A stretch of DNA of 64,000 bases from Patescibacteria group bacterium (GTDB taxonomy: Bacteria > Patescibacteriota > Minisyncoccia > Phycocordibacterales > EsbW-18): contig JBBTUJ010000002.1 of the NCBI GenBank assembly GCA_038063815.1, positions 70,511-134,510 on the forward strand. Reading direction: 5' to 3'. Every line of letters begins with the position of its first letter. The first letter of the stretch is position 1. A program made the position numbers and the translations under genes. Of the stretch, positions 12,637-62,688 are shown in pieces. The notes below the pieces were generated by a model. That model was not told where the DNA came from. It ran no database searches and saw only the letters and a list, made by a program, of their open reading frames with translations.

Positions 12637-12778
12637 AGTATACCCGCACACTAACTTTTACATTATTGCTGCGGTGGATAAACAACTTTCTCTAAAAATG
12701 TAACCAAAACGTTATTTTCGAGTCAGATTTTAAAATTGAAACAAAATCGCCATGTAAAAGTTAGTGTGCGGGTATGCA
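12637..12778. repeat. inverted-repeat element, locus 1: perfect 24-bp arms ATACCCGCACACTAACTTTTACAT flanking an 88-bp spacer
   Basis: Arms at 12637-12663 and 12752-12778 are reverse complements. The same arm family occurs at 43890-44035, 45258-45364 and 62640-62688. Confidence 0.65.
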
Positions 12779-12783
12779 CGATT

Positions 12784-14112
12784 CTAAATATTTGGCAGGT
12801 ATGAAAGTGGATTAAGATACGCTTCGTACGGTGCGTACGCGATCGAGGTGTTCTTGCAGCCAATACTCCATGTGAATTTGTCGATTTTAACGGCGTCGCG
12901 GTCAAATATCGTAAAGTGTAAGTGTGGTCCCGTTGCATATCCCGTTGAACCCGCATATCCGATGATGGCACCTTTCTTAACGTAATCCCCTGCCACAACG
13001 CTTATAACGGAGAGATGGGCATATAAGGAAGAGAGTCCGTTGTCGTGGTCAACAAGGATCCATTTGCCGTATGAGTAACACCCGGGTGACTTATCCATAT
13101 CAACCGCGCCCCTGACTGTGCCTGGTGCTGTGGCGAGGACCGGCGTTCCAACAGACGCCTGAAAATCAACGCCGCGGTGTGGGTTCGGGTTTCCACTTTT
13201 GTCATATCCGTAGGCACCACCACGCGCGAAAGATGTTAGTCCGAATCCTTGGGTCAAAGAAGGATTCTCCACCGGCCATCCAAGAACAGCACTTCCCTCC
13301 TGAGGCAATTTTGACGGGTCAAGAACATAGGCAAGTTTTGATTCATATTCCTGAAGTTCGCTTTCGATTGCTGCGCGTGCCTGTTGTTTTTGAACAAGAA
13401 GTTGTTGGTACTCAGTTTCCTTGTTCTTTGTAACGGAAAGAATAGTGTCTTTTGCGCGTTTGTTTTCATCAACGACTTGTTGCTGCCCTTTAAGTTTTGA
13501 TTTAAACGCAGAGAGATTCTCATGCTCGGCCTGTTCTTTTCGTTCCTTTTCCTCAAGTTCAGATTTGTGGCCGCGCAATTCAACAAGCTGTGTCGCAATC
13601 GTTTCTTGTACGACTTCCATCTGATCGAGTTCGAGCCATAAATCCGAAAGCGACTCGTACGCGAGAACTGTTTCGATAAGCGATTGATTGTCTGCTTCCT
13701 CAAGTGTTCGAAGTGCGTTCGCAAGGATACTACTGTTTCGTTCGATTTTTACCTCCTTGTCGTCAATTGCGATACCAATTTCTTCAATACTGTATTGTGT
13801 TTGTTTGATTCTATTTTCCGTCACCTTGATATCAGAGAGAAGTTTTTGGCGCGTCAGGTTGAGTTCGCGGATTGCCGCTTCGAGTGTTCCGCGCTCCGCG
13901 CCGACTTTTGTGAGATCTCTTTCAAGCGCTTTGATACTTTCGTTGAGCGTGTTGATTTCCCGCTCTTTTTCTTCAATTTTATCTCGAAGTTCATCCGCTG
14001 TTTCAGCCCGGACTATATTCGGGATGAGCATGTATGAGAACACACACAAAAAAACAAACGCAAAAATATATTTTGAATACGACATGTGATTATGCGAGAA
14101 GCGAAATTGCAT
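12784..14112 (-). CDS. M23 family metallopeptidase with N-terminal coiled-coil (EnvC-like)
   Basis: 442 aa. Long coiled-coil, then HRGVDFQA...GYAGSTGYATGPHLHF, the M23 signature. Confidence 0.8.
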   Translation of the reverse strand: MQFRFSHNHMSYSKYIFAFVFLCVFSYMLIPNIVRAETADELRDKIEEKEREINTLNESIKALERDLTKVGAERGTLEAAIRELNLTRQKLLSDIKVTENRIKQTQYSIEEIGIAIDDKEVKIERNSSILANALRTLEEADNQSLIETVLAYESLSDLWLELDQMEVVQETIATQLVELRGHKSELEEKERKEQAEHENLSAFKSKLKGQQQVVDENKRAKDTILSVTKNKETEYQQLLVQKQQARAAIESELQEYESKLAYVLDPSKLPQEGSAVLGWPVENPSLTQGFGLTSFARGGAYGYDKSGNPNPHRGVDFQASVGTPVLATAPGTVRGAVDMDKSPGCYSYGKWILVDHDNGLSSLYAHLSVISVVAGDYVKKGAIIGYAGSTGYATGPHLHFTIFDRDAVKIDKFTWSIGCKNTSIAYAPYEAYLNPLSYLPNI

Positions 14113-15436
14113 TTCGAAGGCGTTTTAAGGTCCTTTCTTTTCCGAGCATTCCGGCGACGGTGAACGGGTCTGGGGACTTGTCCTTGCCTGTTAAAGCCAT
14201 CCTAAAAGGCCATAAAACGCTTCCCCTGCCCTTTTCTTCGGCATATGGCCATATGCTCGCTTTGATGCTTTCTGTGTTAAATTCGGCTTCAGATACTTTT
14301 TCAATATATTCTTTGACTTTCGTCAAGTGCTCTCGTGCGGCCTCGCGGGTTTCTTCTTTCCAAACAAGTTTTCCTGGGTCAACGACGGGCTCTTCCAGGA
14401 GATAACTGAATTCTCCGCTCTCCCATAATTCTGTTACATCTCCCCATGTGTGGATGCGGTCGATAATAAGAGGAAGAACTGTATCGAGCATCTTTTCATC
14501 AATATCTTTCGGAAGAAACTCAAGAAGCCCCCTCTTTTGCTTCTCTGCACCCATTTTCTTTATATATTCTTTGTTGATCCAGTTTAATTTTTGCACATTG
14601 AATACCGCTCCTCCCTTCTGCACTTTCTCAAACGAAAATTCTTGTATGAGATCATCGAGCGACAACATCTCTCGATCACCCCCCGGGTTCCATCCGAGAA
14701 GAGCAACAAAGTTTATGATCGCTTCAGGCAAGTATCCTTTTTTTCGATAGTACGCGAGCGAAACGACCTCTCCGTGTTTTCGTTTCGAGAGTTTTGATTT
14801 GTCGTCTGCCAACACCAAAGGTAAGTGCGCATATATCGGGCGTGTTCCACCAAGCGCTTCAAGAATCAAAATTTGTCGCGGAGTGTTCGAAGTATGATCT
14901 TCTCCGCGAATGACATGGGTGACACCGGAGAGCATATCGTCAACAACAACGGTCATGTGATACACGGGCTCGTCTGTGTTCCGAGCGATGATGAAGTCCT
15001 CTAGGTCTGTTGTATCAACAGAAATCTCTCCGCGGATGAGATCAGTGAACGTGATCGCCCCGTTCGGATTCTTGAAACGGACCACCTTCCCCTTCCCTGT
15101 TGTCGAATCCTCGGCTTCATATGCCTTTCCCTCTGCAATGAGACGATGAAGGTGTTCTTTGTATATTTCGGTTCGCTCTGACTGACGCGGAACGTCGGTG
15201 TTGTCAGGCGGGAGGCCAAGCCACACAAGTCCTGAATAGAGTTCTTCCTCAAATTCTTTCTTACTCCGCTCTTTATCTGTGTCTTCAAGTCGGAAAAGGA
15301 ACTCCCCCTTATTTTGTTTAGCAAAAATATAATTAAAAAGCGCCGTTCGGACACCTCCCATATGGAAAAGTCCTGTTGGCGAGGGCGGAAATCGCGTCAC
15401 AACCTTTGTCATGACATCAGTATAGCAGATTTTCAC
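14090..15436 (-). CDS. gltX: glutamate--tRNA ligase
   Basis: 448 aa. RFPPSPTGLFHMGG (HIGH) and KLSKR (KMSKS). Overlaps the downstream gene by 23 nt. Confidence 0.9.
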   Translation of the reverse strand: MKICYTDVMTKVVTRFPPSPTGLFHMGGVRTALFNYIFAKQNKGEFLFRLEDTDKERSKKEFEEELYSGLVWLGLPPDNTDVPRQSERTEIYKEHLHRLIAEGKAYEAEDSTTGKGKVVRFKNPNGAITFTDLIRGEISVDTTDLEDFIIARNTDEPVYHMTVVVDDMLSGVTHVIRGEDHTSNTPRQILILEALGGTRPIYAHLPLVLADDKSKLSKRKHGEVVSLAYYRKKGYLPEAIINFVALLGWNPGGDREMLSLDDLIQEFSFEKVQKGGAVFNVQKLNWINKEYIKKMGAEKQKRGLLEFLPKDIDEKMLDTVLPLIIDRIHTWGDVTELWESGEFSYLLEEPVVDPGKLVWKEETREAAREHLTKVKEYIEKVSEAEFNTESIKASIWPYAEEKGRGSVLWPFRMALTGKDKSPDPFTVAGMLGKERTLKRLRNAISLLA

Positions 15437-15458
15437 TGCATTTTGTCTCAGAATAGTC

Positions 15459-16613: not shown

Positions 16614-16649
16614 ACGCTGTGTTGTGTCTTCAGTTTATCACGGAAATCT

Positions 16650-17753: not shown

Positions 17754-17784
17754 TCCTCGTATGGTAGCACGTTACACTCACGCC

Positions 17785-18840: not shown

Positions 18841-18879
18841 ATAAATATCTTACAGCTTTTAGGTTACAGGGTATAGATA

Positions 18880-19906: not shown

Positions 19907-20515
19907 TTAGGTGTTAGGCATCGCGGATTCTTCTTTGGAGGTCGGACCTCCAAATTTTGGAGGTCCGACCTCCAAATCGCTGCTTGCTCCCTCTCGCGTT
20001 GCAAACGCCGCAATTGCTTCGCGTGCGGTCTCAAAATCAGGAAGTTCGTTAAGTGACGTGATTCCGAGGAAACGGAGAAGTTCGAGTGTTGGTTTGTAGA
20101 GGAAACTTCTTTGGTCGCTCGGGTTGTCAACACGCTCAACAAGCCCGCGCACTAAAAGTTGTCGGAGAGAGAACGTCGAATTGACACCGCGGATATAATC
20201 AACACGTGCTCGGGTGACAGGTCCGTAGTAGAGGATGATCGCAAGCGTTTCAAGGCCCGCTTTTCCGAGGTCTCGCTCGAGTTCCTCTTTTCGGAGAAGC
20301 GCGATCTTTTCTTCCGCCTCAGCCGCTGTTGCGAGCATGACCTCATCCGCTGTCTCCACAAGCCGAATTCCCCTTTCGGTAAGCGTTGTCTTAAGTTCGG
20401 TCAGTGCTTCCCGTGTCTTTTCTTCCGATAGAGACAAGGCCTTCGCGATATCTTTTACTCGCATCGGTTCCCCTTTATAAAAAAGCAGCGCTTCAATGTG
20501 TGCAGAAAGGTTCAT
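19907..20515 (-). CDS. scpB: segregation and condensation protein B
   Basis: 202 aa. N-terminus EALLFYKGEPMRVKDIAKAL is typical of ScpB winged helices. Confidence 0.85.
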   Translation of the reverse strand: MNLSAHIEALLFYKGEPMRVKDIAKALSLSEEKTREALTELKTTLTERGIRLVETADEVMLATAAEAEEKIALLRKEELERDLGKAGLETLAIILYYGPVTRARVDYIRGVNSTFSLRQLLVRGLVERVDNPSDQRSFLYKPTLELLRFLGITSLNELPDFETAREAIAAFATREGASSDLEVGPPKFGGPTSKEESAMPNT

Positions 20516-29457: not shown

Positions 29458-30066
29458 ATGGATGTCCAGAAAGCCGAGCAGATGCTCTGGCAGAGGGCTG
29501 ACGAGCTTTCTGCCGAACGAGATGCGCTCTCCAAGAAGAGCGACGAGCTCTTCCAGATCTGCGGACGAGTCCGCAAGGGAGAGCTCAAGGGTGCCGACCT
29601 TGTGAAGTTGGAGGGGCGTTACTGGGAAATCCAGCGACGTCTCGAGGCGATTACTGCCGAAGAGGCAGAGATTGTCCTCGATCTCGAGATGATTTCGCGA
29701 GGTGTGATTCCGGAGAAGTTCGCGGAGTCAGCCCAGTCCGCCCTCTCGAAGCGCCGTCAGGCGATTGCCTCCGAGGAGGCGCGAATGTTGCCTCGCGAGG
29801 ACGAGGACCAGTTCTGGGAGGCGTATGTTCCCGGATACCAAGGGAAGCGTCCCAAGAGCGCTCGTCATCAAGCGGCATCCAATGGGCGCTTTCTCACAAC
29901 GGGTCGTCACGCGACCCATGTGACGGGGCAACTTTTGCCAGAGATCGCCCCCGATGCTTTCTTCGAGGCGACGGCTGACACTCACGGTGGTAAGGTCCGA
30001 GGCGGTTCAAAACCCGTCAATGGGACCTACATCTCCAAGGGAGGGAAAGCAATTCGGAAGTTCTAA
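29458..30066 (+). CDS. GC-rich hypothetical protein with N-terminal coiled-coil (202 aa)
   Basis: Perfect promoter and an SD with AAGCTT directly before the ATG. Tandem GC hairpins and a T8 terminator follow. No family recognised. Confidence 0.55.
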   Translation: MDVQKAEQMLWQRADELSAERDALSKKSDELFQICGRVRKGELKGADLVKLEGRYWEIQRRLEAITAEEAEIVLDLEMISRGVIPEKFAESAQSALSKRRQAIASEEARMLPREDEDQFWEAYVPGYQGKRPKSARHQAASNGRFLTTGRHATHVTGQLLPEIAPDAFFEATADTHGGKVRGGSKPVNGTYISKGGKAIRKF

Positions 30067-30070
30067 ACAC

Positions 30071-30121
30071 GCCGCGCAACGCGCGGGCCCGCCCAGACCA
30101 TGGGGCGGGTTCGTTTTTTTT
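30071..30121 (+). terminator. rho-independent terminator (tandem GC hairpins plus T-run)
   Basis: GCCGCGC-aac-GCGCGGG and CCCGCCC-agaccat-GGGGCGGG, followed by TTCGTTTTTTTT. Confidence 0.65.
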
Positions 30122-30141
30122 ATATAGTTTTTAAGAGAAAG

Positions 30142-31002
30142 TTACGTTTTAACTCTCATCACGAAAACCTGGGCGTTCTCAAGCAACAGTCTCACTTTGT
30201 GATCATCAATGTTTAATTTTTTTGGAGATACCAAGTTATTTCTTTCTTCCATAAAACTGTGACGCTCGATGCTAAATCCTAGATCACTAAAAAAACGAAC
30301 GGCATGCTCTTCGTTGTCAAAAAGATTGTTATCTATGTTTATTCCTGTTATCTCGTTTATCTTATCTCGTAAACCGTGTGCCACAACCTCACTGTCCTGC
30401 ACCATTCTTTTTTTTGAGATATCCGGAGTGATCCAGACACCGCCGAACTTTTCGAGAATCTTATGAATGTTTTTTGCAACCACAGCCTTTTGTTCGAAAG
30501 AGAGATATCTCAATAAGCCCTCATGTATAACAGCAATAGGCTTTTTTTCATCAAAATGCTTGCACGCCAAGAGGAGTTCTTCGTAGACTAAAGCATCTGC
30601 TGGTTCAAAGTATATATTTGCAGGGAGTTCTTTTTTGAATTTCGATAGTATTTGTTTCTTCTCTTCGATTAATTTTGAAAAGTCCGTTTCCACATATGTT
30701 ACCCGGGAATCCTCTGAAAGTTCCAAACCCCGCGGAGAAAGTCCAGCGGCAATCTCGAGAATCTGCGTTATGCCACTTTCCTTCAGAAGACGGTTGGCTA
30801 GTTTGTACCTTGCCTCAAATTGGGGGCTCAGCCGAGTATCCTTTACCACTTCTGGAATCGTTTCGCCTGCCTCAATACGAATTTTTTCCATCTCGTCAAA
30901 TATTTCCTTAGAGAAAGGAATATCAGAGAATGTTCGGCAGTGTGCCACAAGCCACGCTGTCGGTATTACTTTTTCGTTCCCCACTTTCGAATGCTTTTTC
31001 AT
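30142..31002 (-). CDS. class I SAM-dependent methyltransferase, LCM/TcmP-like O-methyltransferase family
   Basis: 286 aa. QILEIAAGLSPRGLEL and YVETDF resemble the LCM family GAGLDTR and E-D-P motifs. Lies 36 bp downstream of res on the same strand. Confidence 0.5.
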   Translation of the reverse strand: MKKHSKVGNEKVIPTAWLVAHCRTFSDIPFSKEIFDEMEKIRIEAGETIPEVVKDTRLSPQFEARYKLANRLLKESGITQILEIAAGLSPRGLELSEDSRVTYVETDFSKLIEEKKQILSKFKKELPANIYFEPADALVYEELLLACKHFDEKKPIAVIHEGLLRYLSFEQKAVVAKNIHKILEKFGGVWITPDISKKRMVQDSEVVAHGLRDKINEITGINIDNNLFDNEEHAVRFFSDLGFSIERHSFMEERNNLVSPKKLNIDDHKVRLLLENAQVFVMRVKT

Positions 31003-31038
31003 TTTTTAAAAGGGCCTGACCCTATCTTTTCTAATATT

Positions 31039-33570
31039 CTATTTTTCAAGAAGGTCTTCGAGAGAGCTTCTGAAATGCTTTTGAAATAACCTACCATCGA
31101 GAAGATATTCGCAAAATTCAGAATAGTTTGAGGGACTTAAGAAATGAAAGAAGTAGTTCTGATTAACTTTTGCTTTCTTTAATTCCTCATTTAGGGTTTT
31201 AAAATGTTCCTTTGCCCAACGGTATTTGGCCTTATTTTCATCTGACTCATCACCGTCCATTTTGATTTCCACAACAACAATATTGTTGGCAAGCTTTAGA
31301 AAAAAATCCGGATTAAAGTTAGCCTGCGTCTGATGCTCACCTTTGCGCCACGAATACTCAATGCTATAAAAATTTTGATCCCTTGACTTTATCCAAGCGT
31401 CAATCTTTTCACTAACTTTTGAACTAACAATAGCTTGAACAAACTTTCTTTCGGGCTCATGTTTAGTAAAAACAATATTTATAGGTGTTTTAAAACAATA
31501 GTAGTTTATTTCCTTACTAGCCCTTTTAGGTAAACTTTCATCGTTAATAATGTCCGAAAGAAGATCATATTGTTCTTTTGAACACTCACTTTCATACTCA
31601 TCAGAATAAAAAACAGTTGCGTCATGTCTAAGGGCGCCAATAGCAATACTTTCCTGTTCTAAATTTCTCGTACTTATTTTTTTTGGCTTTTCGACTTTTC
31701 TTTTAAAAATAATTGTAGATGCTCGAGTTCTAAAAAGTGTTTGAAAGGTTCCAAAAATCTTTTTTGTATTAATTTCAGTTAAAACACCACTTTTAATGCC
31801 AACTACCTGCATAGATTTTTTCACATGCTCTCGGATCTCATTTTCGGGTGGTAAATCTTCTTTCGTATAAATTCCCTTCGGGAAACGTATTTTTGCTTCA
31901 AAGTCTCGCGTTTTGAAAGTATCGATAATTTTTGTAACAACTTCATCTATTGTATAAGTTTCTTTTTGGACAGTTGTTGTTTTACGTATTATTCCACCTT
32001 TTAAATCTTCGTACTCAGTTTCTTTTTCATCATGTTCAACCTGGCTTACCAATTTTGTGTATCCTTTCGAATAATCAAATTCCTCAGTATCTTTTTTTGC
32101 TTCCACCTCTTTTTCTTCTTTTGTAAAATCTATGTTATAAATGTCAAAATGATAATTTTCGCGACCGCCAAATATCAACGGAGCACTTACTAGACGAACC
32201 TCTACTTCTAAAATTTCATCAATAAGACCACGGATATTTCGACTCCATGCGTCATGATTAAAAACACGAACCTTTGGCTGTGGTGATTTATACGCTTCAG
32301 GCACACGCAATCCGCGACCAAGCACTTGAGCTATGAGAAGTTTTGAATTGAACGCCCGGTCTTCCCATGGCACAATTTGAAAAACATTTTTTACATCCCA
32401 GCCCTCGGTTAGCATAGAAACTGAAATAATCCATTCAACTGGGTTATTTTTTTCGTCTACACTTTTTAACTGCAAAATGTTTTTCTTGTGATCTTTGTGG
32501 GAAGTAACAATCAAAACTTTTTTCTCAACGGCGATGCGTGAGATTTTTTCGCGTTTTTGCAAAAAATCAACCAAATCTTCTCGAAGCGTTTTTGCTCTTG
32601 AAATATCTTTTGTAACAAGCATTGTAAGTGGTTTAATGAGTCCATACTTTTTTACAAATTCGTCATGGTTATCATAAATCTTTTGAAATTTCTCATTTGT
32701 ATCAATGCTTTCGTCTTTTGCCACATAATCAACAGATTTTACTACATGTTCATCAACCGCCTGTCGGATTGAGTAACGATAAATGACGTCATTAAAATAC
32801 TCATCGTCAATGTACGCTGTTCCGGTAAAGCCGAGAATATATTTGAATCCGTAATCAGAATTAAGTAAAAACGCTTTCCATTTTTTTATATCCGTATCCA
32901 GTGAAGCGTTGTAGGCATGATGGACTTCATCGTTCAAAACCAAGACACGCGCCCCGCTGCCTTTCAAGCTATCTTGTATTGATGATCCAGTACGTTCGTA
33001 AACGGCATGGATATTTTCCACCGCAATGTCACCATTTTTTATAGTGCTATTTGCGTCAATAATGCGAGGATTTTTATACACCGCATCGTTGGGTAGGGTG
33101 GTTTTAATTCGATCATCGCCAGAAAGATTTTGAAACTTCTCTTTTAATCCTGCCTCAATAGTGAGCGATGGGCAAAGTACAAGAACCCTATCAACCAATC
33201 CAAGTCCTAAAGCAATTTGCGCAATTCCGTACATTACATAACTTTTTCCTGTTCCTGTTGCCAAATCAATAACACCAGATAATTTGTGAGGTAGCTGTAA
33301 GTTCTTTTCGTATTCGCGCGTATCTTTGTATCGATCTCGTAATTCAACATTCGTTCGCCAATTTTCGCTGATCAAATCTTCAATTGAATCGTATTCGCCA
33401 GAAGCAATGTAGGTTATTGCCGTGCGGATCGCGTCTTTTTGGTACTCTCTATCTGGACAAAGCACATCAATGAAATCTATCCATTGCTTGAGTTTCAACT
33501 TCGTGGGATCAAATTTTTCTTTAACCTCTAGAACCAAATCTTGTGTTTTATAAATCTTGATGTCTGTCAT
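31039..33570 (-). CDS. res: Type III restriction enzyme, Res subunit (SF2 helicase-nuclease)
   Basis: 843 aa. Walker A LATGTGKSYVM and a DEAH-type box VLNDEVHHA. Directly downstream of mod with an ATGA start/stop overlap. Confidence 0.85.
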   Translation of the reverse strand: MTDIKIYKTQDLVLEVKEKFDPTKLKLKQWIDFIDVLCPDREYQKDAIRTAITYIASGEYDSIEDLISENWRTNVELRDRYKDTREYEKNLQLPHKLSGVIDLATGTGKSYVMYGIAQIALGLGLVDRVLVLCPSLTIEAGLKEKFQNLSGDDRIKTTLPNDAVYKNPRIIDANSTIKNGDIAVENIHAVYERTGSSIQDSLKGSGARVLVLNDEVHHAYNASLDTDIKKWKAFLLNSDYGFKYILGFTGTAYIDDEYFNDVIYRYSIRQAVDEHVVKSVDYVAKDESIDTNEKFQKIYDNHDEFVKKYGLIKPLTMLVTKDISRAKTLREDLVDFLQKREKISRIAVEKKVLIVTSHKDHKKNILQLKSVDEKNNPVEWIISVSMLTEGWDVKNVFQIVPWEDRAFNSKLLIAQVLGRGLRVPEAYKSPQPKVRVFNHDAWSRNIRGLIDEILEVEVRLVSAPLIFGGRENYHFDIYNIDFTKEEKEVEAKKDTEEFDYSKGYTKLVSQVEHDEKETEYEDLKGGIIRKTTTVQKETYTIDEVVTKIIDTFKTRDFEAKIRFPKGIYTKEDLPPENEIREHVKKSMQVVGIKSGVLTEINTKKIFGTFQTLFRTRASTIIFKRKVEKPKKISTRNLEQESIAIGALRHDATVFYSDEYESECSKEQYDLLSDIINDESLPKRASKEINYYCFKTPINIVFTKHEPERKFVQAIVSSKVSEKIDAWIKSRDQNFYSIEYSWRKGEHQTQANFNPDFFLKLANNIVVVEIKMDGDESDENKAKYRWAKEHFKTLNEELKKAKVNQNYFFHFLSPSNYSEFCEYLLDGRLFQKHFRSSLEDLLEK

Positions 33571-33572
33571 AA

Positions 33573-35537: not shown

Positions 35538-35598
35538 GATCTTCTTTAACTTTTGACTACATCATATACCAAAAACCCGGCTTTTCGCCGGGTTCTGA

Positions 35599-42154: not shown

Positions 42155-42397
42155 TTAGAGCCGGCGGGTAATGCGGGGCTTCCCTCCGTATGAGTCGAGG
42201 AGCACTTCAACCGTGTCTCCAACGATAACGCGGATGCGGTGGAGACGCATCTTTCCTGCGAGGTATGCAATAACCGTGCCGTCTTCGCCGAGCGTCATGT
42301 CGGGCGGCGGAGTTTCAAATGAAATGCGGAAATGCGCGTTTGCGAGGGCTTCTACCACCGTGGCTCGAACGACTGTTCCTTTTGGGGTTTCGGTCAT
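42155..42397 (-). CDS. infA: translation initiation factor IF-1
   Basis: 80 aa, S1-like OB fold (GTVVRATVVEALANAHFRI...RIRVIVGDTVEV). Confidence 0.9.
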   Translation of the reverse strand: MTETPKGTVVRATVVEALANAHFRISFETPPPDMTLGEDGTVIAYLAGKMRLHRIRVIVGDTVEVLLDSYGGKPRITRRL

Positions 42398-43740
42398 GAT
42401 GCGTCTTCTGGTGATGCGACACGGACAGTGATGTCAGATGCCTCGTCGGGGAGAGAGCGTTTCCAGAACGGCTGGACAACAACATCGGCGCGCAAGATCC
42501 CGGGATATGCGGAGAAGACAGTCGGCGTGAACGAGCGGCGCTTTCCAAGAAGATCTTTGGTCAATGCTTCGGTATCAACTTTCCACACAAGTGTTGCAGG
42601 GCCAGTGATGCGCAAAGGAACAGATGTCGCCGTTTCGATATTCAGATCGTTCACGTCGGGGATTGAGACAGAAAGAGTATCTGCATCAACGAACGTCACC
42701 TCTTCTCCCGCGTAATCTGTTATCCTCGTCCGAGCAACTTCTTCGGCGATTTTATCTGTTTCGATTGCAAGCGCAGTCAAGGTTCCCTGCACTCGGATAG
42801 CAACTGTGTTCGCGGAATCTCCCTCTTTGTTCGGAAGGGGTTCGAATGCGTAGATGGCACTTTCAGGAACGAGTGTGAATCCTTCTGGCAACGTGGCCGC
42901 TGCTTTTGTAAGGAGCGCTGTTTTGAGTTCTCCCTCAAGAGCGACTTGTGCGGCCTCGGTGTCCGCAGCAGATGCTGTCTTCACGATTCCGGCGAAACCT
43001 CCTGTCATCGGTGTTTTTGAACGTCCGTAGAATGAATCGAAACGAGGGTCGTTGTTTTCTTTGAGTCCTGGAATAGTGAAATCGGAGAGCCCGATGTTGT
43101 ATTCGTCTCCGGCGGTATCCGCAAAGACATTCGTTTCAATCAAGCCAGGAACTACCTTACCGTTTGCGTCTTTATGTTTTCCAGGCACTGTGATTGATTC
43201 GGGGATACGGAAAATAAGACCATCGGTTGTTTCAAAGCGGGTATTCTTGATGAGACGTTGTACTTCCTCGTCAAAATCGTTGAACACGGCGATACGTCCT
43301 GTTGCGGCGCGCTCAACGCGTTCTTCGCCTGTTGCGGTGACTGTTTTTGTTCCTTCTTCGGAGACCGTAAGCATCTCAAAACCCACCTGACCCTCGAGAG
43401 GTGTCATAAAAGCAGTCGCCGTGTCATCAACATTGACGAGTGCAGAGCGCGGGGTGACTGTGATTGTTGCGCTCGCAAACGCGCTCCAGACAAAAAGGAG
43501 AATGATTACAAGAACAACAACGCCGATACCAATCCACAGAGCCTTGCGTGTTCTTCGTCGTCCGAACTCACGAGGTCGTGAGGGGAATGGCGGAAGGGGT
43601 GGCTCTTTTGGAATACCCGAACTCATACTTGGTTCAACAGGTCTCATCGGAGACGATGTTTCTCCTGTTAATGTTTGTGGGCGGTCAATGGCGATGTTCC
43701 GCACTGATCGACGCTCTCCTTCTTTGGTGATGTCTTGCAT
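42394..43740 (-). CDS. hypothetical membrane-anchored protein (448 aa) with Pro-rich N-terminus
   Basis: Single TM helix (ALWIGIGVVVLVIILLFVW) and a large extracytoplasmic domain. No family recognised. Confidence 0.45.
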   Translation of the reverse strand: MQDITKEGERRSVRNIAIDRPQTLTGETSSPMRPVEPSMSSGIPKEPPLPPFPSRPREFGRRRTRKALWIGIGVVVLVIILLFVWSAFASATITVTPRSALVNVDDTATAFMTPLEGQVGFEMLTVSEEGTKTVTATGEERVERAATGRIAVFNDFDEEVQRLIKNTRFETTDGLIFRIPESITVPGKHKDANGKVVPGLIETNVFADTAGDEYNIGLSDFTIPGLKENNDPRFDSFYGRSKTPMTGGFAGIVKTASAADTEAAQVALEGELKTALLTKAAATLPEGFTLVPESAIYAFEPLPNKEGDSANTVAIRVQGTLTALAIETDKIAEEVARTRITDYAGEEVTFVDADTLSVSIPDVNDLNIETATSVPLRITGPATLVWKVDTEALTKDLLGKRRSFTPTVFSAYPGILRADVVVQPFWKRSLPDEASDITVRVASPEDAS

Positions 43741-43889
43741 AGCGATGCTAGTTTGTTAATGCGTCCCGTTAGAGATTATAAAGTTTGTACGGGCATGATT
43801 CTTAATCTATATGAAATATGTGATTATCCGCGTAAGTCAGATATCTCTACGAAAACGCATTGCGTTTTCTATCTCTAACGGGATGCGAA

Positions 43890-44035
43890 TAGTATACCCT
43901 AGCACTAACTTTTGCATAGCGGCTTTTGTTGAAAACCTCAAATAGGACGCGGGTGATACTGAGTATTTAATTAAAAAAAGACCTCTTTTTATCGATCCGC
44001 AAAAACGATACAAAAGTTAGTGCGCGGGTATACTC
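43890..44035. repeat. inverted-repeat element, locus 2: arms AGTATACCCTAGCACTAACTTTTGCAT and ATACAAAAGTTAGTGCGCGGGTATACTC with an 88-bp spacer
   Basis: Arms at 43890-43919 and 44008-44035. Same family as loci 1, 3 and 4. Confidence 0.65.
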
Positions 44036-44063: not shown

Positions 44064-45251
44064 TCACTTGTTTGTCGGCTGAGGGCTCTCTTCAAGAAGC
44101 GTGGTCAAGCGAAGCAGTATGTCGTCTGATTTGACGCCGCCGGCGACGGAACAAAATGGTTTTGTCTCTTCCTCCGAGAGAACCTTGATTGTCATAGGGT
44201 CACGGAGTTTAAGCGTCTCTTTATATGCCATAAGCGTTTCGTACAGTGGCTCTCGGTATCCTTTCTCCACACGAAGGAAAAGTGCTGAAGGTGTAGTCCC
44301 GGACATAGATATTTTTTGAAGAACTTCGGTGAGCGTGTTCGCCCACTGTTCCGATGCTTTTTTAAGAGATTCCCGCACACGCTCTTTTTCTTCCCCGTGC
44401 ACCTTCGTTGTTTCTCCAGTTTCAAGTGCGTAGTTAACCTCGTGCGGAAGTGTCGCACTTCCTCGAGCGCTTTCTTCGCGGAGGAAAAGCGTTCCCTTCG
44501 GAAATGAGACCGTCAGAAGGCGGCCCTCTCTTGATGAGTGTGTTATCTCGGTCGTGCGCGATGATACATCAACAAAAAGGAAATCGGGCGAAGAAGTGTT
44601 CGTGCGTGGAAGTGTTGTGGCAACTACAAAAGGAACAGAATAGGTGCGGGGATTTTTTGTTGCAAAGAAACGCAGAACGGTTTCTTCAACTGCTCTCTTG
44701 AGTCTTGTCGGCACAGCACTTGCAAACAGAGTCATGCCAACGCGGTCTGCCTTTTTACCGTGCGGATTTGTGACCGGATACCCATTCATCGTGAATCCTG
44801 TAACAGCACTCTCGATCAGCGTCATCTGCTCATCGTGTGGCAAGATATCTTTTGCGTATGTTTCGATGAGACGTGGTATGTTCTTTTGAGATAACAGGAG
44901 CGGTGTATCGTGTTCGATTGAAACACTGCGAGCACGGGATATATACCACGGTGCGCCATAGATGATGACGAGTTTGTCAAAAAGTCCACGGGATACACGA
45001 CGCGATGCGATATGTGGAAGACCTTCTTTGTGTGTGTGTTCACACGCACGAGAAAGCGTGTTCGTAAGTGCAAGTGTTAAGCGATCAATTGACGCATCTC
45101 CTGGCGCATCAAGAGATTCTTCTATCTCGAACACAAGGGTTGGTTTCTCAGATATGGCTGAGAGAACGATACCAACACGCACAACGCCGCTTTCAAGGGC
45201 GATAAGGAGAGTGCTTTTTTCTAACTCTGTAGATCTTCCAAAAATGCTCAC
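44064..45251 (-). CDS. hypothetical protein (395 aa; GTG start), possible actin-fold/PilM-FtsA-like N-terminus
   Basis: An ORF with N-terminal LLIALESGVVRVGIV. The repeat arm lies directly upstream of the start codon. Confidence 0.35.
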   Translation of the reverse strand: MSIFGRSTELEKSTLLIALESGVVRVGIVLSAISEKPTLVFEIEESLDAPGDASIDRLTLALTNTLSRACEHTHKEGLPHIASRRVSRGLFDKLVIIYGAPWYISRARSVSIEHDTPLLLSQKNIPRLIETYAKDILPHDEQMTLIESAVTGFTMNGYPVTNPHGKKADRVGMTLFASAVPTRLKRAVEETVLRFFATKNPRTYSVPFVVATTLPRTNTSSPDFLFVDVSSRTTEITHSSREGRLLTVSFPKGTLFLREESARGSATLPHEVNYALETGETTKVHGEEKERVRESLKKASEQWANTLTEVLQKISMSGTTPSALFLRVEKGYREPLYETLMAYKETLKLRDPMTIKVLSEEETKPFCSVAGGVKSDDILLRLTTLLEESPQPTNK

Positions 45252-45257: not shown

Positions 45258-45364
45258 AGTTTACCCTAGCACCAACTTTTGTATAGGAGCGTTGTTGAAA
45301 AGCGATACTTAAAGTCGAATGTGACGTCGAGGAAACAGTACAAAAGTTAGTGCTGGTTGTAACA
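45258..45364. repeat. inverted-repeat element, locus 3: arms AGTTTACCCTAGCACCAACTTTTGTATAG and ACAGTACAAAAGTTAGTGCTGGTTGTAAC with a 49-bp spacer
   Basis: Same arm family. The spacer begins GTTGTTGAAAAG, as at locus 2. Confidence 0.6.
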
Positions 45365-45373: not shown

Positions 45374-47152
45374 TTACTCAAGTATCGCTTTGATGCGCCG
45401 CACGCCCGCAGATGACGCTTCTTCTTTGACGATTTTAAATATGCCGAGTTCTTTTGTGTTTGTGACGTGAGGACCACCGCAGAACTCCTTGCTTACCGGG
45501 GTTTTTTCGTCACCGACAAAATAGATAGAAACCGTATCCGGATATTTTGCGTTGAACTCCATTTCCGCACCGATTGATTCTGCCTCTGCGCGAGGCATCT
45601 CTTTTCTGACAACGGGGAGTCCTTGTGCGATTGCGTTATTCACAAATTCTCCGATTTTTTGTTTTTCTTCATCTGTCAGTTTTGTTGGATGAGAAAAATC
45701 AAATCGCAAGCGTTCTTCGGTGATATTACTCCCCTTCTGCTTCACGTGTTCTCCGAGAACATGCTTCAGGGCGGCATTCAGAAGGTGCGTTGCCGTATGA
45801 AGGCGAACTGTTTTCTCGGATGTGTCCGCGAGCCCACCTTTGAATTTTTGTTCCGCACCCGAACGGCTTTTTTCCTGGTGTTCTTTGATCTTGTTTTTGA
45901 AGTCCTTTTCGTCAACGGTTTCCCCTTTTTCAAGGGCGAGTTCTTGTGTCATCTCAAAAGGAAATCCATACGTGGTGAAAAGGATAAATGCGTCTCGTTC
46001 CCCTTTCTCAAATTCTTTGAGTCCGCGGGCAAGAGTCGTACGAAACCGCACCTCCTCCTCTTTTTCGACGTCGCTCGTGAACAGAGTTCCGGGCGTAACA
46101 CCTATCTTGTCGGCGTGAAAGATCGCTCGGCGAAGAAGTCGACGCAAAACATATCCTTGTTCAGTATTCGAAGGTCGTACTCCGTCAGCAATAAGCATGT
46201 TTGCCGCCCGTGCGTGGTCAGCAATGATACGGAATGATTTCTGATGCAGCGGATCTTCATATTTCTTGCCTGAAAGTTTTTCGAGGCGGGCAATCGTATC
46301 AATAAATGCATCAATCTTAAAAATATCGGGGTCGTTCTGTGATGCAGAAGCCATTCGCTCTAATCCGCCTCCAAAGTCAACGTTTTTGCTCGGTAAAGGT
46401 TCAAATACCCCTTCCCCGGCTTTCTTATATGTCATGAACACATTGTTTCCAATCTCAAGATAACGCCCGCAGTCGCAGTTAGGGTGACACTCTTTGCCAA
46501 ATTTCGGATCGTGCTCTATTTCAGTGAATTCATAAAACATCTCCGAATCTGGTCCACCCGGTTCACCAATAGGCATTTTGTCTGGCGTACCTGCACGGCT
46601 CCACCAGTTTTTTTTCGAATCGTAATAAAAGATACGTCCGCCTTGCATTCCCACATCGGAACCCGCGGCTTCGCTTCCGATCTCAACAATGTTTGCCTCG
46701 ATGCCCCGTTCCTTGAAAATTGCTTTCCAAAGCTCTGCGGACTCGGTATCTCTTTCTAGGCCATTCTTTGTATCTCCGATAAAAGTAGTGACGTAAAGTT
46801 TTTTGGGGTCAATACCAACTTCATCAAACAAAAACTCAGACATCCATCGCAACTGCTCGCTCCTGAAGTAATCACCAAAACTCCAGTTTCCCAACATCTC
46901 GAAAAACGTCGTGTGTCTGTTGTCTCCCACCTCTTCAATATCTTCGGCACGGAATGATCTTTGCGAATTTACGATCCGTGTTCCCAGGGGATGCTTTTCT
47001 CCCAAAAGATATGGAATCATCGGTTGCATCCCTGAGCCGGTGAAAAGCGTTGTCGGGTCTCCCTCTGGCACGATAGGTGCAGACGGAACAACCGCGTGTC
47101 CGCGCTTTTCAAAGAAATCTAGAAATCGTTTTTTGATCTCAAAAGAATTCAT
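45374..47152 (-). CDS. alaS: alanine--tRNA ligase, truncated form (catalytic plus editing HxxxH/CxxxH, no C-Ala domain)
   Basis: 592 aa. N-terminal FLDFFEKRGHAVVPSAPIVPEGDPTTLFTGSGMQ, and C-terminal HTATHLL...CGGPH editing motifs. Confidence 0.85.
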   Translation of the reverse strand: MNSFEIKKRFLDFFEKRGHAVVPSAPIVPEGDPTTLFTGSGMQPMIPYLLGEKHPLGTRIVNSQRSFRAEDIEEVGDNRHTTFFEMLGNWSFGDYFRSEQLRWMSEFLFDEVGIDPKKLYVTTFIGDTKNGLERDTESAELWKAIFKERGIEANIVEIGSEAAGSDVGMQGGRIFYYDSKKNWWSRAGTPDKMPIGEPGGPDSEMFYEFTEIEHDPKFGKECHPNCDCGRYLEIGNNVFMTYKKAGEGVFEPLPSKNVDFGGGLERMASASQNDPDIFKIDAFIDTIARLEKLSGKKYEDPLHQKSFRIIADHARAANMLIADGVRPSNTEQGYVLRRLLRRAIFHADKIGVTPGTLFTSDVEKEEEVRFRTTLARGLKEFEKGERDAFILFTTYGFPFEMTQELALEKGETVDEKDFKNKIKEHQEKSRSGAEQKFKGGLADTSEKTVRLHTATHLLNAALKHVLGEHVKQKGSNITEERLRFDFSHPTKLTDEEKQKIGEFVNNAIAQGLPVVRKEMPRAEAESIGAEMEFNAKYPDTVSIYFVGDEKTPVSKEFCGGPHVTNTKELGIFKIVKEEASSAGVRRIKAILE

Positions 47153-56484: not shown

Positions 56485-56497
56485 GTGAACGTGTAGT

Positions 56498-57814: not shown

Positions 57815-57867
57815 AAAAGTATAACTCTTTTGGAAGCACGGGGCACGGATAGCAAAATCTGAAAGTT

Positions 57868-59856: not shown

Positions 59857-59906
59857 CAAACGGGCGGCCTTTCTCGTTCATATAAAATCGCGTACACTAG
59901 TTTCAA

Positions 59907-61208: not shown

Positions 61209-61225
61209 GATCTAGCACATACGGG

Positions 61226-61801
61226 ATGAGAACCATCGTTTTTGATATTGAAACAAAAAATATCTTCCAGGATGTGGGGGCACACGACCCCGTACTTCTT
61301 GATATTGCCGTTGTCGCACTCCACGACTCAGAAACCGACACCTATAGTTCATACATCGAGAGCGAGTTTCCCAAAATGTGGCCGATATTCGAGAAGGCCG
61401 ATCTCTTAGTTGGATACAATTCCGATCACTTTGATATTCCTCTTTTGAATAAGTACTACCCCGGAGATCTGACTCAGATAAAAAGCGTCGATATTATGGT
61501 TGCCATTAAGAACGCGCTGGGGCGACGTCTAGGGCTTGGAAACGTTGCGGGGGCGACGCTTGGTCTCAAAAAATCAGCCGATGGCATGCAAGCATATTAT
61601 TGGTGGAAGGAAGGAAAGGTTCAGGAAATACGTGACTACTGTGTCCAGGACGTCAAGGTCACCAAAAATCTCTACGAATATATTTTAAAGAATAAAAAAA
61701 TCATGTATCGGGATGGCCCGAACATGCTTCCCCTCTCACTCGACATTACTGACTGGGAAAAAGAAAGCAACCACTCTCTCACCCACTCTTTTGGGTTTTA
61801 A
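61226..61801 (+). CDS. 3'-5' exonuclease, DEDD (DnaQ-like) family
   Basis: 191 aa. Exo I (VFDIET) and exo II-like (YNSDHFDIPLL) motifs. Confidence 0.5.
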   Translation: MRTIVFDIETKNIFQDVGAHDPVLLDIAVVALHDSETDTYSSYIESEFPKMWPIFEKADLLVGYNSDHFDIPLLNKYYPGDLTQIKSVDIMVAIKNALGRRLGLGNVAGATLGLKKSADGMQAYYWWKEGKVQEIRDYCVQDVKVTKNLYEYILKNKKIMYRDGPNMLPLSLDITDWEKESNHSLTHSFGF

Positions 61802-61831
61802 AAACACGAAGATTCGTGTTGCGGGAAGATT

Positions 61832-62629
61832 TTACAAAAAGAGGAGAATAAGAGCCGCCGCAATGATGCGGTAGACAATGAAAACGGTGAGTGTCCGTGT
61901 TTTCAAAAATGTTATCAGAAAATGAATCGCGATAAGACCGGATACAAATGCTGCGATTGCAGCGCTACCGAATACAAAGATACTCGTCGTATCATTTCCC
62001 GCATTTTGGAAGAGATCGAAGAGCGAAAGCGCACCAGCTCCTAACAAGACCGGGAATGAGAGAACGAATGCAAAGCGGGTTGCTTCTTCACGGGACAATC
62101 CTTGGAATAATCCCCCTGAGATCGTCGCCCCTGAACGCGATATGCCCGGAATAAGTGCAATCGCTTGGAAAAGTCCGACCTTAAACCCTAAACTCCCAGA
62201 AATCTCACGCGGAAGCGCCCGACGTGTTCTTTCCGCAGCAATCATAATGATGCTTCCTGCAATAAGACCTCCCGCAACGATAAGAGAATTCCGTGCAGTT
62301 GTTTCGAGATATGAGCGAAACAAAAAACCAAACAGGAGTGCCGGAAGAGTTCCCACACACACCGCATAGAGAAACGCCCTGTCCTTTGGAAGGATTTCTT
62401 TTCCCTGTATCCATGCCAAAGCAGTTACAAAAAGCCGCCAGATATCATTCCTAAAATAGAGCAGGACCGCGGCCAACGTGGCAAGATGGAGCGCAGCATC
62501 AAATGCAAGTCCCCCTTCCCCGATTGAAAAAATCTCCCGCACAAGAACAAGATGTCCCGTTGAAGAAATGGGCAGAAACTCGGTTAGGCCCTGAATAAGT
62601 CCCAGAAGAATTCCCTCGATGGTTGTCAT
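61832..62629 (-). CDS. uppP: undecaprenyl-diphosphatase
   Basis: 265 aa polytopic membrane protein. GISRSGATI BacA signature. Confidence 0.85.
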   Translation of the reverse strand: MTTIEGILLGLIQGLTEFLPISSTGHLVLVREIFSIGEGGLAFDAALHLATLAAVLLYFRNDIWRLFVTALAWIQGKEILPKDRAFLYAVCVGTLPALLFGFLFRSYLETTARNSLIVAGGLIAGSIIMIAAERTRRALPREISGSLGFKVGLFQAIALIPGISRSGATISGGLFQGLSREEATRFAFVLSFPVLLGAGALSLFDLFQNAGNDTTSIFVFGSAAIAAFVSGLIAIHFLITFLKTRTLTVFIVYRIIAAALILLFL

Positions 62630-62639
62630 AACGCTCTAT

Positions 62640-62688
62640 GGTATACCCCAGCACCAACTTTTCAAAAAGTGAGTGCTGGGGTATACTC
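62640..62688. repeat. inverted-repeat element, locus 4: adjacent arms forming a near-perfect ~22-bp hairpin (GGTATACCCCAGCACCAACTTTT / AAAAGTGAGTGCTGGGGTATACTC)
   Basis: Same arm family as loci 1-3 but with almost no spacer. Sits in the divergent uppP / dsbA-like intergenic region. Confidence 0.65.

Follow-up and report, generated by a model that had tools for sequence, protein, structure and literature searches.

The window analysed here is a stretch of 64,000 nucleotides from the genome of a Patescibacteria group bacterium. It contains eight copies (arms) of one short motif, lying as inverted pairs at four loci, and all four inverted repeats described in an earlier note on this DNA are present. 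A search with GTATACCCNNNCACYAACTTTT, allowing up to 3 mismatches, found the motif 7 times in the window, compared with an expectation of 0.01 from shuffled sequences, while the eighth arm (45339-45364) is degenerate and visible through its inner half only. The arms, their spacers and the neighbouring genes are the following.

12341..12628, - strand: gene downstream of locus 1, 95-aa predicted membrane protein, no Pfam match
12637..12663, - strand: locus 1 proximal arm, reading ATGTAAAAGTTAGTGTGCGGGTATACT on this strand
12664..12751: locus 1 spacer, 88 nt, unconserved and without strong structure of its own
12752..12778, + strand: locus 1 distal arm, tail TATGCA (12773-12778), putative -10 spoiled
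42394..43740, - strand: gene downstream of locus 2, 448-aa membrane-anchored protein, no Pfam match
43890..43917, - strand: locus 2 proximal arm, putative -10 TATACT (complement of 43891-43896)
43918..44007: locus 2 spacer, 90 nt, with TTGTTGAAAA at 43926-43935 plus A/T tracts
44008..44035, + strand: locus 2 distal arm, TATACT intact (44029-44034)
44064..45251, - strand: gene downstream of locus 3, between loci 3 and 2, 395 aa, no Pfam match
45258..45283, - strand: locus 3 proximal arm, putative -10 TAAACT (complement of 45258-45263)
45284..45338: locus 3 spacer, 55 nt, with GTTGTTGAAAA at 45291-45301
45339..45364, + strand: locus 3 distal arm, degenerate, with a GGTTGTAACA tail
61832..62629, - strand: undecaprenyl-diphosphatase BacA/UppP gene, at the locus 4 left arm (putative promoter)
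62640..62662, - strand: locus 4 left arm of a tight palindrome, putative effective -10 TACCAT (complement of 62638-62643)
62665..62688, + strand: locus 4 right arm, putative -10 TATACT at 62682-62687
62731..63411, + strand: DsbA-like thioredoxin gene, at the locus 4 right arm (putative promoter)

An inverted-repeat search aligned the locus 1 arms (12640-12663 and 12752-12775) over 24 nt with 100% complementarity at a distance of 88 nt, in agreement with the perfect 24/24 reverse complement noted earlier. It gave 30 nt at 87% for locus 2 (90 nt apart), 16 nt at 94% for locus 3 (55 nt apart) and 22 nt at 91% for locus 4 (2 nt apart). At locus 1, the TATACT of the proximal arm (complement of 12637-12642) is followed by 8 nt and then by an ATG (12628-12626), and the TAAACT of locus 3 by 6 nt and the GTG start (45251-45249) of a 395-aa actin-fold-like protein, so that the reported closeness of proximal arms to start codons holds at both. 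The left arm of locus 4 presents TACCAT, 8 nt and the ATG (62629-62627) of the BacA/UppP gene, and in the right arm 43 nt separate TATACT from the start codon (ATG) of the DsbA-like thioredoxin gene. The proximal arm of locus 2 stands 150 nt upstream of its gene (start at 43740) and thus would yield a structured leader. The distal arm of locus 1 faces the stop codon of an M23 peptidase gene (12784-14112, - strand), that of locus 2 points into the 395-aa gene from its 3' side, in antisense direction, and that of locus 3 abuts the stop codon of alaS (45374-47152, - strand).

All copies had been described as intergenic, which is correct if the 95-aa gene begins at the ATG 12626-12628; the mechanical ORF 12341-12685, which begins at an upstream TTG instead, overlaps the proximal arm of locus 1. 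A spacer motif had been assigned to the long-spacer loci 1 and 2, but the GTTGTTGAAAA-type motif is found in loci 2 and 3; at locus 3 it reads TTTTCAACAAC on the gene strand, about 13-23 nt upstream of the arm, and is kept in the related genome L082. Elsewhere in the window, the dnaK and dnaJ genes have no motif upstream, and the sole sigma factor encoded there is of ECF type (1454-1975), its own upstream region being without the motif.

The consensus of the arm is AAAGTTRGTG-NNN-GGGTATAC(T), with a putative promoter module of about 21 bp. The arm is not private to the source genome: an exact-pattern scan of a genome collection found it in 81 stretches from about 44 species-level assemblies, and metagenomes gave additional matches, so the copies elsewhere that the earlier note had envisaged do occur. 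The carriers are nearly all Parcubacteria/Patescibacteria (CPR, uncultured) MAGs, and the arm is common to many Parcubacteria genomes with its letters almost unchanged; one arm sequence persists in several candidate phyla of the Parcubacteria group. The GGGTAT of the arm is invariant, and the mismatch spectrum of sites is almost all-or-none (0 mismatches in 107, 1 in 31, 2 in 11). A single arm has no internal dyad except GTATAC. Arms are nearly always found in inverted pairs, with AAAGTT heads inward and TATAC tails outward, and head-to-head gaps fall into classes of 3-12, 14-72 and 84-107 nt. Gaps of 4 nt (25 units), 5 nt (19), 6 nt (15), 7 nt (6) and 8-12 nt (10) were counted, and the commonest form of the element is a bare palindrome of about 48 bp with no core. 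The inter-arm gap contains no conserved sequence and no conserved -35 hexamer. At the gathering threshold, Rfam returned tRNAs only in the window and 20 further loci, with no family match for the element, and the literature searched yielded no published description of it.

The earlier note had put forward as its lead idea that the outer end of the arm could act as a -10 box for leaderless transcripts, and the comparative statistics of two independent collections strongly support it. With gene starts set by a crude ORF rule, 49 of 140 arms in the genome set are followed, 7-13 nt past GTATAC, by a start codon (46 ATG) that opens a long ORF, the distance peaking at 7-8 nt. In the metagenome scan, a second and independent data set whose counts are lower bounds covering the matches listed, at least 41 of the 163 arms listed have an ATG 8-13 nt past position 20 (3.4 expected). 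Over the two sets, the second again being the metagenome matches listed, 25-35% of arms have an ATG with a long ORF 6-8 nt after TATACT. Furthermore, motif-free genes of the same loci (n=616) show a peak of TANNNT 6 nt before the ATG (74 vs a background of ~15), and the outer-end hexamers of the window (TATACT, TAAACT and TACCAT) fit TANNNT. Since the arm tail has the same spacing as the TANNNT of motif-free leaderless genes in these genomes, it is very probably the -10 box for leaderless mRNAs, with the transcription start placed by geometry.

Base composition points in the same direction. Productive arms of an unbiased set terminate in CT in 34, GT in 8 and TT in 1 of 62 cases, with T at position 22 in 69%, and 76% of productive arms have C at position 21, vs ~34% at the matching -8 of motif-free -10 boxes. 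Motif-free promoters have an extended -10 (TRTGn), lack AAAGTTGGTG and the G-run, and are also without a clear -35. Upstream of the arm's putative -10 we found just weak TTnnnn or nnTACA matches, and no GTTT of the SigB/SigF-type -35 (GTTT-N12-17-GGGTAT) is conserved upstream of GGGTAT. A consensus promoter scan called sigma-70-like promoters on both strands at locus 4 and none at loci 1-3. A plain promoter leaves unexplained about 16 extra, nearly invariant bases of the arm, 31 units in which both arms are kept perfect, and the covariation of a sequence-free 5-bp stem extension.

Usually one arm per pair is in apparent use; its partner, which is without the -7 T, is the more prone to decay. 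A T occupies position 22 in only 36% of non-productive arms, and paired arms are identical there at a frequency of 0.15 vs 0.41 expected. In 37 of the units with a single intact arm the damage is on the non-productive side, and in 12 it is on the productive side. This threefold bias towards intact productive arms indicates selection linked to the gene downstream. Of 68 intact productive arms, 17 (25%) stand without a partner. Upstream genes often end with their own GC hairpin and T-run directly against the idle arm. The downstream genes cover a broad range of functions, in which UvrD and LigA recur to some extent: UvrD is preceded by the motif, with similar 5-nt gaps, in 4-5 genomes (45-65% amino-acid identity), and the motif is likewise found repeatedly upstream of LigA, M23 peptidase, MurC and pilins. 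The S24 (UmuD-like) peptidase is also among the gene families repeatedly linked to the element, and some arms precede tRNA genes, for instance by 37 nt in L078. Within one genome, near-identical upstream sequences front unrelated genes.

The element also behaves like a dispersed, mobile-like repeat. In the one orthologous comparison available, with L082, locus 3 is conserved and locus 2 is absent, GGGGGTATATACT standing in its place. In the JAYVBM genome, the spacers of 5-6 copies are 67-79% identical vs a background of 0.57 (maximum 0.63); homology between the spacers of the window copies was not demonstrable (identity 0.61-0.66). Elements form a tandem array with GTATAC junctions in common, and the tail-to-tail junction is always GGGTATACCC, with GTATAC regenerated each time. 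Moreover, changes on one side of the stem are compensated on the other, in a way that is symmetric at the DNA level and shows no strand bias of G-U vs A-C mismatches (14 vs 17 in tight forms, 10 vs 8 in long forms), and a 5-bp stem extension without conserved sequence keeps its complementarity by covariation. The MITE-like family suggested earlier is thus borne out in part, as regards dispersal, internal homology in one genome, orthologous gain and loss, and tandem arrays, but neither a clear target-site duplication nor an autonomous partner element was found. Direct repeats of 2-8 nt outside positions 20-22 were not above chance, a duplication of the palindromic TA or TATA being indistinguishable from the inverted repeat itself. 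In 1.2 Mb of loci, a limited sample, no arm pair encloses a transposase, and the genes flanked by elements are housekeeping genes.

Of the known systems, the Correia element (CREE) of Neisseria comes nearest to this repeat. Like CREE/NEMIS, the present element is a small non-autonomous palindrome with terminal inverted repeats of about 26 bp beginning with TATA (PMC2649163), and it shares with CREE discrete length classes, promoter-making ends, presence/absence variation and the lack of a known transposase. CREE occurs in lengths of 153-157, 104-108 and 69-73 bp; its ends make sigma-70 promoters whose -10 is completed by the flank or lies within the first 6 bases, it is found before DNA-repair genes such as uvrB, and its presence differs between related genomes with no transposase known (PMC2649163). 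The present element does not belong to that family, its arm TATACCCNNNCACYAACTTT being unrelated to the CREE TATAG[CT]GGATTAA... (PMC2649163). CREE does not occur outside one genus, but the present element is found in several candidate phyla within the Parcubacteria group. Unlike CREE, it is locked to leaderless start codons with single-nucleotide precision, it most often takes the form of the coreless palindrome of about 48 bp, and a TA duplication is not demonstrable.

The element resembles REP/BIME/REPIN sequences in being an extragenic palindromic repeat found as single units, as spaced inverted pairs and as alternating tandem clusters, and in keeping its complementarity at the DNA level. 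The REP unit is a short imperfect hairpin with a GTAG head, in which the DNA hairpin structure matters, and REP families are long-lived, accompanied by an enzyme that is passed on vertically. Assignment to REP/REPIN-RAYT was rejected, given the single arm without internal dyad except GTATAC and the absence of a RAYT-like gene from a limited protein sample; REPs, unlike the present element, are not tied to start codons. As in the leaderless promoters of Actinobacteria and Deinococcus-Thermus, TANNNT stands here 6-8 nt before the start with no Shine-Dalgarno sequence, but those ordinary leaderless promoters have no further conserved sequence, whereas the present class adds about 16 near-invariant bases and a mirrored partner. 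The near-identical upstream sequences before unrelated genes of one genome recall 'mobile promoters'; to our knowledge, the described cases are all genome- or species-specific, unlike the present sequence, which is common to a deep clade. Two further assignments were rejected: a CIRCE/HrcA operator (TTAGCACTC-N9-GAGTGCTAA), to which some arms have a partial TAGCACT likeness with other spacing, and an intrinsic (Rho-independent) terminator, as a T-run follows 10 of 203 arms only and none was called at the loci of the window.

Terminal inverted repeats, discrete length classes, internal sequence common to copies, gain and loss at an orthologous site, tandem arrays whose junctions always restore GTATAC, and DNA-level compensatory stem changes without strand bias would all suit a purely selfish MITE- or REP-like element with no role in transcription. 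Such an element would insert into pre-existing -10 boxes (TATA/GTATAC), possibly moving through a DNA hairpin, and target choice would account for the closeness to start codons. We consider this unlikely, since the productive arm is intact more often than the idle one (37 vs 12), C at position 21 is far commoner in productive arms than in motif-free -10 boxes, copies are kept before orthologous genes at deep divergence, and the arm sequence persists across several candidate phyla with no transposase found in the loci sampled. The preferential decay of idle arms and the quarter of intact productive arms that are partnerless also weigh against reading the palindrome as an operator bound by a conserved global regulator, dimeric or tetrameric, with the site lying over the promoter from about -52 to -9, with the copies as its regulon and the long-spacer forms bound through a DNA loop. 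Half-site spacing varies (4, 5, 6 and 7 nt are common, and 30-107 nt occur too), a sequence-reading protein needs no complementarity in a stem extension of unconserved sequence, the near all-or-none matches differ from the graded spectrum usual for regulons, and the functions downstream are broad with no candidate regulator found. The operator idea can call upon dyad symmetry, very high conservation over many genomes, overlap with the -10 region, the recurrent gene families (notably UvrD, LigA, S24 and M23 peptidases), the retention of both arms before uvrD between genomes 45-65% identical, and A-tract-rich spacers of about 100 bp that could favour looping; we nevertheless judge it quite improbable, and the palindromic regulator site is the least favoured of the earlier note's three ideas.

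It is more doubtful still that the element works as an RNA hairpin in read-through transcripts, that is, as a terminator, a 3'-end stabiliser or an RNase III site separating cistrons. Its stems combine length with stability (z-scores -5 to -8), those of at least 22 bp being long enough for RNase III, which cuts Correia elements (PMC2649163), and loci 1-3 begin 6-28 nt past the stop codon of a co-directional gene. T-runs are however scarce after the arms, upstream genes often terminate before the element by their own terminator, mismatches have no strand bias, the palindrome of locus 4 would stay untranscribed between its divergent genes, and Rfam gave no match.

The explanation that we favour, and consider reasonably probable, is that the arm is a self-contained promoter module for leaderless or very-short-leader mRNAs and that the palindrome is a small non-autonomous repeat. 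The outer end of the arm, TATAC + T, would be the -10 hexamer 6-8 nt upstream of the start codon, and the clade-specific, near-invariant block AAAGTTRGTG-NNN-GGG would span about -28 to -13 and presumably be read by a conserved factor or by RNA polymerase itself. Two such modules would face away from each other in a DNA palindrome, their heads being 3-12, ~30-70 or ~85-107 nt apart. One side would normally be in use, while the idle side, often abutting the T-run of the upstream gene's terminator, would lose its -7 T and decay faster. The whole palindrome may multiply, form tandem arrays, and come and go in a Correia-like manner, some copies being retained before one same gene over deep divergence.

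More tentatively, a conserved host protein that reads the arm and the hairpin or cruciform could both copy the palindrome and make a promoter of it, a possibility to which we give limited credence; no candidate for a trans-acting factor was found among the sequences examined. The kinds of protein that would qualify are a domesticated HUH/Y1-type or other transposase, a dedicated sigma factor or an activator. If true, a considerable fraction of the leaderless genes in a whole tiny-genome CPR lineage would be driven by one standard, self-propagating promoter cassette. The lineage would in effect have a system for distributing promoters genome-wide, and supercoiling might affect it via cruciform extrusion.

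The four inverted-repeat loci that the earlier note had described in the window, which belongs to a MAG of the Patescibacteria group (locus tag AAB460), are all present. Each is composed of two arms, modules of about 21 bp running from an AAAGTT head to a TATAC tail, and directly downstream of each locus lies the start of a minus-strand gene.

Inverted repeats in the window and their downstream genes (all on the minus strand)
Locus 1: 24/24 perfect, arms 88 nt apart; 95-aa membrane protein
Locus 2: 30 nt, 87%, arms 90 nt apart; 448-aa protein
Locus 3: 16 nt, 94%, arms 55 nt apart; 395-aa protein
Locus 4: 22 nt, 91%, arms 2 nt apart; BacA/UppP

Read outward, every window arm has the form ..AAAAGTTRGTG-NNN-GGGTATAC(T), with the heads turned inward and the tails toward the genes. 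Locus 4 is additionally upstream of a plus-strand DsbA-like gene, while loci 1-3 start 6-28 nt past the stop codon of a co-directional upstream gene (M23 peptidase, the 395-aa gene, alaS). The arm consensus, allowing up to 3 mismatches, matches the window 7 times for 0.01 expected, and an eighth, decayed arm is found at 45339-45364; this excess and the copies in other genomes and metagenomes rule out chance or artefact as the source of the motif.

When 185,579 species, each represented by one genome, were scanned for exact matches to AAAGTTRGTGNNNGGGTATAC, 81 stretches were found in about 44 assemblies, labelled Taylor-, Kaiser-, Nomura- or Lloydbacteria, Paceibacterota, Parcubacteria or Patescibacteria; several of the motif-bearing groups are separate candidate phyla within the Parcubacteria group, according to NCBI. 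Outside these groups, the scan gave 3-4 single-arm chance matches in other bacteria. A second scan, of metagenomes and with positions 21-22 of the arm left free, gave at least 116 stretches. The search for further copies proposed in the earlier note was thus successful, and a recent MITE private to the host genome is excluded, since the same arm occurs in about 44 others. A viral collection contained 18 matches, every one a single arm and about half within one conserved coding stretch (EWMKVGAWVYDHFD); no partner arm (up to 4 mismatches, at pair spacing) was found beside any of the 18. A phage origin or use was rejected, the viral matches being single or coding, without partners and compatible with chance. 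No description of the motif was found in the literature searched, by motif string and by the topic of CPR promoters and palindromes.

Nearly all arms occur in head-to-head pairs, and apparent single arms mostly have a degraded partner. The heads are separated by 3-12 nt in 76 units (tight form; 4 nt in 25, 5 nt in 19, 6 nt in 15 and 7 nt in 6), by 14-72 nt in 10 units and by 84-107 nt in 19 units (long form). Neighbours placed tail to tail always overlap by exactly GTATAC, yielding GGGTATACCC, and three long elements are joined in this way into a tandem array at L057 3531-3930, L-numbers designating loci from other genomes or metagenomes. The arrays at L057 3531-3930 and L080 3809-3962 contain 2-3 long-form elements with a period of 128-133 bp, two units being near-identical duplicates. 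A 3447-bp contig labelled Nitrospira sp. (L040) is probably a mis-binned Parcubacteria contig, as it has a long-form pair whose arms start 124 nt apart. Some long forms have an upstream 'CAnnAAC', which the partner arm mimics in tight forms; as an element common to all it was rejected, single arms being inconsistent.

The tails are placed where a promoter element would be expected for leaderless genes. In the genome set, a start codon opening a long ORF lies 7-13 nt after GTATAC in 49 of 140 arms, 46 of these 49 codons being ATG and the distance peaking at 7-8 nt. In the independent metagenome set, a long-ORF ATG follows position 20 by 8-13 nt in 41 of 163 arms among the matches listed, compared with 3.4 expected from random positions. 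Among 616 motif-free genes at the same loci, TANNNT boxes peak 6 nt before ATG (74 versus a background of about 15) and, in others of these genes, Shine-Dalgarno-like motifs peak at 5-10 nt; many other window genes have a TANNNT box 6-8 nt before ATG and no Shine-Dalgarno. Since the start-codon distances match the TANNNT position of motif-free genes, the arm tail is very probably a normal -10 box at the normal place for leaderless genes. The earlier note's idea of a -10 box for leaderless transcripts is therefore supported by start-codon geometry in two sets and by the motif-free genes.

The 140 motif-free leaderless promoters read TRTGnTAtA(A/C)T, with no AAAGTTGGTG-like sequence or G-run. 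Across the Parcubacteria loci (L001-L198) and the window, this pattern stands 6-8 nt before ATG in about a quarter of the genes whose upstream gap is 45 nt or more, and has no clear -35. Beyond the -10, the arm has a further 16 or so almost invariant bases, from about -28 to about -13. A consensus promoter scan gave TTTTCA-17-TATACT on one strand of locus 4 and TTGAAA-16-TACCAT on the other, and no recognisable -35 at loci 1-3. Of the arms with no ATG close by, some are located before tRNA genes.

The two arms of a pair are not equivalent. Most pairs contain exactly one productive arm, i.e. one whose tail is shortly followed by a start codon opening a long ORF, the other arm being idle. With positions 21-22 unconstrained and among the matches listed, 34 of 62 productive arms end in CT, 8 in GT and 1 in TT, and only 36% of non-productive arms have T at position 22, the -7 base that closes the -10 hexamer. 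The two arms of a pair share the base at position 22 in 15% of cases, versus 41% expected. The idle arm frequently adjoins the T-run of the upstream gene's ordinary hairpin terminator. In units with a single intact arm, decay has struck the idle arm in 37 and the productive arm in 12; of 68 intact productive arms, 17 lack a partner. Thus an arm can exist on its own, and selection tracks the downstream gene.

The palindrome is itself maintained. Partner arms agree at positions 7, 11, 12 and 13 in fractions of 0.89, 0.97, 0.82 and 0.90, compared with 0.56, 0.68, 0.65 and 0.51 in partner-shuffled controls. In long and intermediate forms, the stem extends exactly 5 bp inward from AAAGTT, the sixth column being unpaired. 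The sequence of this extension is not conserved and its complementarity is: each column holds 3-4 Watson-Crick pair types and is unpaired in only 1-4 of 20 sequences, and the covariation score is 0.310 versus 0.145 when shuffled (reached by none of 500 shuffles) and 0.03-0.09 when the partner is slid. In same-genome copies with homologous spacers, the extension differs with both sides changed together. Such an inverted repeat might act as an RNA hairpin, but the mismatches reveal no strand bias of G-U over A-C (14 versus 17 in tight forms, 10 versus 8 in long forms), and a T-run follows only 10 of 203 arms. With no Rfam match either, RNA-level selection was rejected, as was a terminator role for want of a U-tract. 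These observations speak against selection on an RNA hairpin or terminator and for a DNA palindrome kept via a cruciform, a single-strand hairpin, or copying of one arm from the other.

Gain and loss could be followed in one orthologous comparison, as a search with the 395-aa protein found one homologue only and no close relatives in metagenomes. This locus (L082), the only close relative obtained, has conserved synteny and a 395-aa protein that is 69% identical. Of the intergenic regions that the earlier note had proposed to compare, locus 3 is kept in L082, with the proximal arm, TAAACT-N6-GTG and TTTTCAACAAC almost unchanged and a diverged spacer, whereas the locus 2 site has no element, only GGGGGTATATACT 30 nt before ATG. 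In JAYVBM, another motif-bearing genome, 5-6 long copies, found in both orientations, share 67-79% identity in their spacers (background mean 0.57, maximum 0.63); no relatedness could be demonstrated among the window's own spacers. Direct repeats outside the element do not exceed chance, the sole candidate target-site duplication is a palindromic TA/TATA, and no arm pair was seen to enclose a transposase in 1.2 Mb of loci. The earlier note's MITE-like family is partly supported, by dispersed copies, spacer homology and gain/loss; no clear target-site duplication was found, nor a transposase in the loci scanned. Genes flanked by elements are ordinary (pilin, EF-Ts, PBP, glycosyltransferase, T4SS coupling protein). 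Five metagenome loci with arms 1029 bp apart (L093, L106, L122, L163, L190) were excluded as an autonomous element: they are one 99%-identical coding sequence from another organism, containing by chance a perfect arm and a 3-mismatch arm.

Several further features were observed near the elements. The whole block of about 265 bp with the leader of the 448-aa gene (43741-43890, minus strand), downstream of the locus 2 arm, is absent at the orthologous L082 site. This leader carries an inverted copy of ATCTCTAACGGGAYGC (43869-43888 versus about 43755-43775, pairing over 17-19 nt possible); it also has a small hairpin, GAAAACGCAATGCGTTTTC, and, about 30 nt ahead of the ATG, a second TATAAT box. 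A perfect 12-bp inverted repeat, 45299-45310 / 45380-45391 (AAAGCGATACTT / AAGTATCGCTTT), links the last alaS codons to the locus 3 spacer; as its halves lie on either side of the distal arm and TTTT comes next on the gene strand, this repeat possibly serves as the alaS terminator. In L082, 6 bp of the repeat are retained, one pair having changed from G-C to A-T on both sides. The stretch 20143-20165 (CAACTTTTAGTGCGCGGGC), within or beside a murein-synthesis gene cluster where gene starts are uncertain, has the 12-mer TTAGTGCGCGGG in common with the distal arm of locus 2 and may be a collapsed or decayed copy.

Other features of the window
1454-1975, minus strand: ECF-type sigma factor, 173 aa
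30142-31002: LCM-type methyltransferase, in the low-GC island
31039-33570: Res of a Type III restriction-modification pair, in the low-GC island
33573-35537: Mod of the same pair

The arm motif is absent upstream of the ECF-type sigma gene. After this gene (312-1975 region, minus strand) comes one for a 378-aa protein that matches no Pfam family and may be the corresponding anti-sigma factor. The island at 30000-36000 (GC 0.37-0.40 versus about 0.48 elsewhere) was probably acquired horizontally. In the tRNA cluster, a tRNA-like gene at 3861-3937 scores only 37.7 bits with Rfam, and its anticodon could not be assigned by ARAGORN ('tc'), suggesting an unusual anticodon loop or a small insertion.

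The genes downstream of arms are functionally diverse.

Genes downstream of arms
DNA maintenance: UvrD/PcrA (5-6 cases), LigA (2), S24 peptidase
Cell envelope and division: MurC, MurJ, MreB, UppP, PBP, VanY, M23 peptidases, pilins
Translation, secretion, transport and metabolism: L31, IF-3, SecD, CorA, Prs, PyrB, Zwf
Other: many small membrane proteins

The association between motif and gene is partly conserved across genomes: the motif precedes UvrD in 4-5 genomes (missing in 1-2), M23 in 3-4 and LigA in 2, and is variable before MreB, L31 and IF-3. The UvrD palindromes have 5-nt gaps of similar sequence (GTCCC, GTTCC, GATGC, GTTTC), suggesting that they were inherited from a common ancestor. 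RecA, UvrA and similar genes, sought for an SOS-type regulon, were not located in the retrieved loci.

The palindromic regulator site proposed in the earlier note, i.e. an operator bound by a dimer, is disfavoured, as half-site spacing is variable, some arms stand alone and the covarying stem extension is sequence-free. A purely selfish element merely targeting -10 boxes would account for the position of the tails, but the preferential preservation of the productive arm, the C at position 21 and the long-term retention before orthologous genes speak against it. The best-supported reading of these sequence patterns is that the element is a putative promoter module for leaderless genes, existing and spreading as a palindromic repeat.

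Among known systems, CIRCE, integron attC, LexA-type and MraZ-type boxes, the ECF-type -35 'AAC' with a 16-17 nt spacer and T7/SP6-like promoters were discarded, since the arms differ from them in spacing or sequence. The closest analogue is the Correia element of Neisseria, whose ends begin with TATA and complete -10 boxes, and which has three length classes, occurs before repair genes, differs between strains and has no known transposase (PMC2649163). The Parcubacteria element differs in sequence and host range and is not of the same family; moreover, it is coupled at single-nucleotide precision to leaderless start codons and is conserved across candidate phyla. REP/REPIN-RAYT is a second analogue; its defining unit hairpin and enzyme were not found in the arms and the limited sample of proteins scanned.

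CPR bacteria, including Parcubacteria, are uncultured and have very few recognisable regulators, and to our knowledge almost nothing is known of how their transcription is organised. The element is a highly specific cis-signal, searchable in any metagenome; it probably marks the starts of transcription units and predicts leaderless start codons, which makes it useful in gene calling, and the arm (about 35 bits) could serve as bait to fish out its putative binding protein. Few repeats that bear a putative promoter are, like this one, conserved in sequence across several candidate phyla and not within one species or genus, so that the way in which selfish spread and regulatory co-option interact becomes directly testable.
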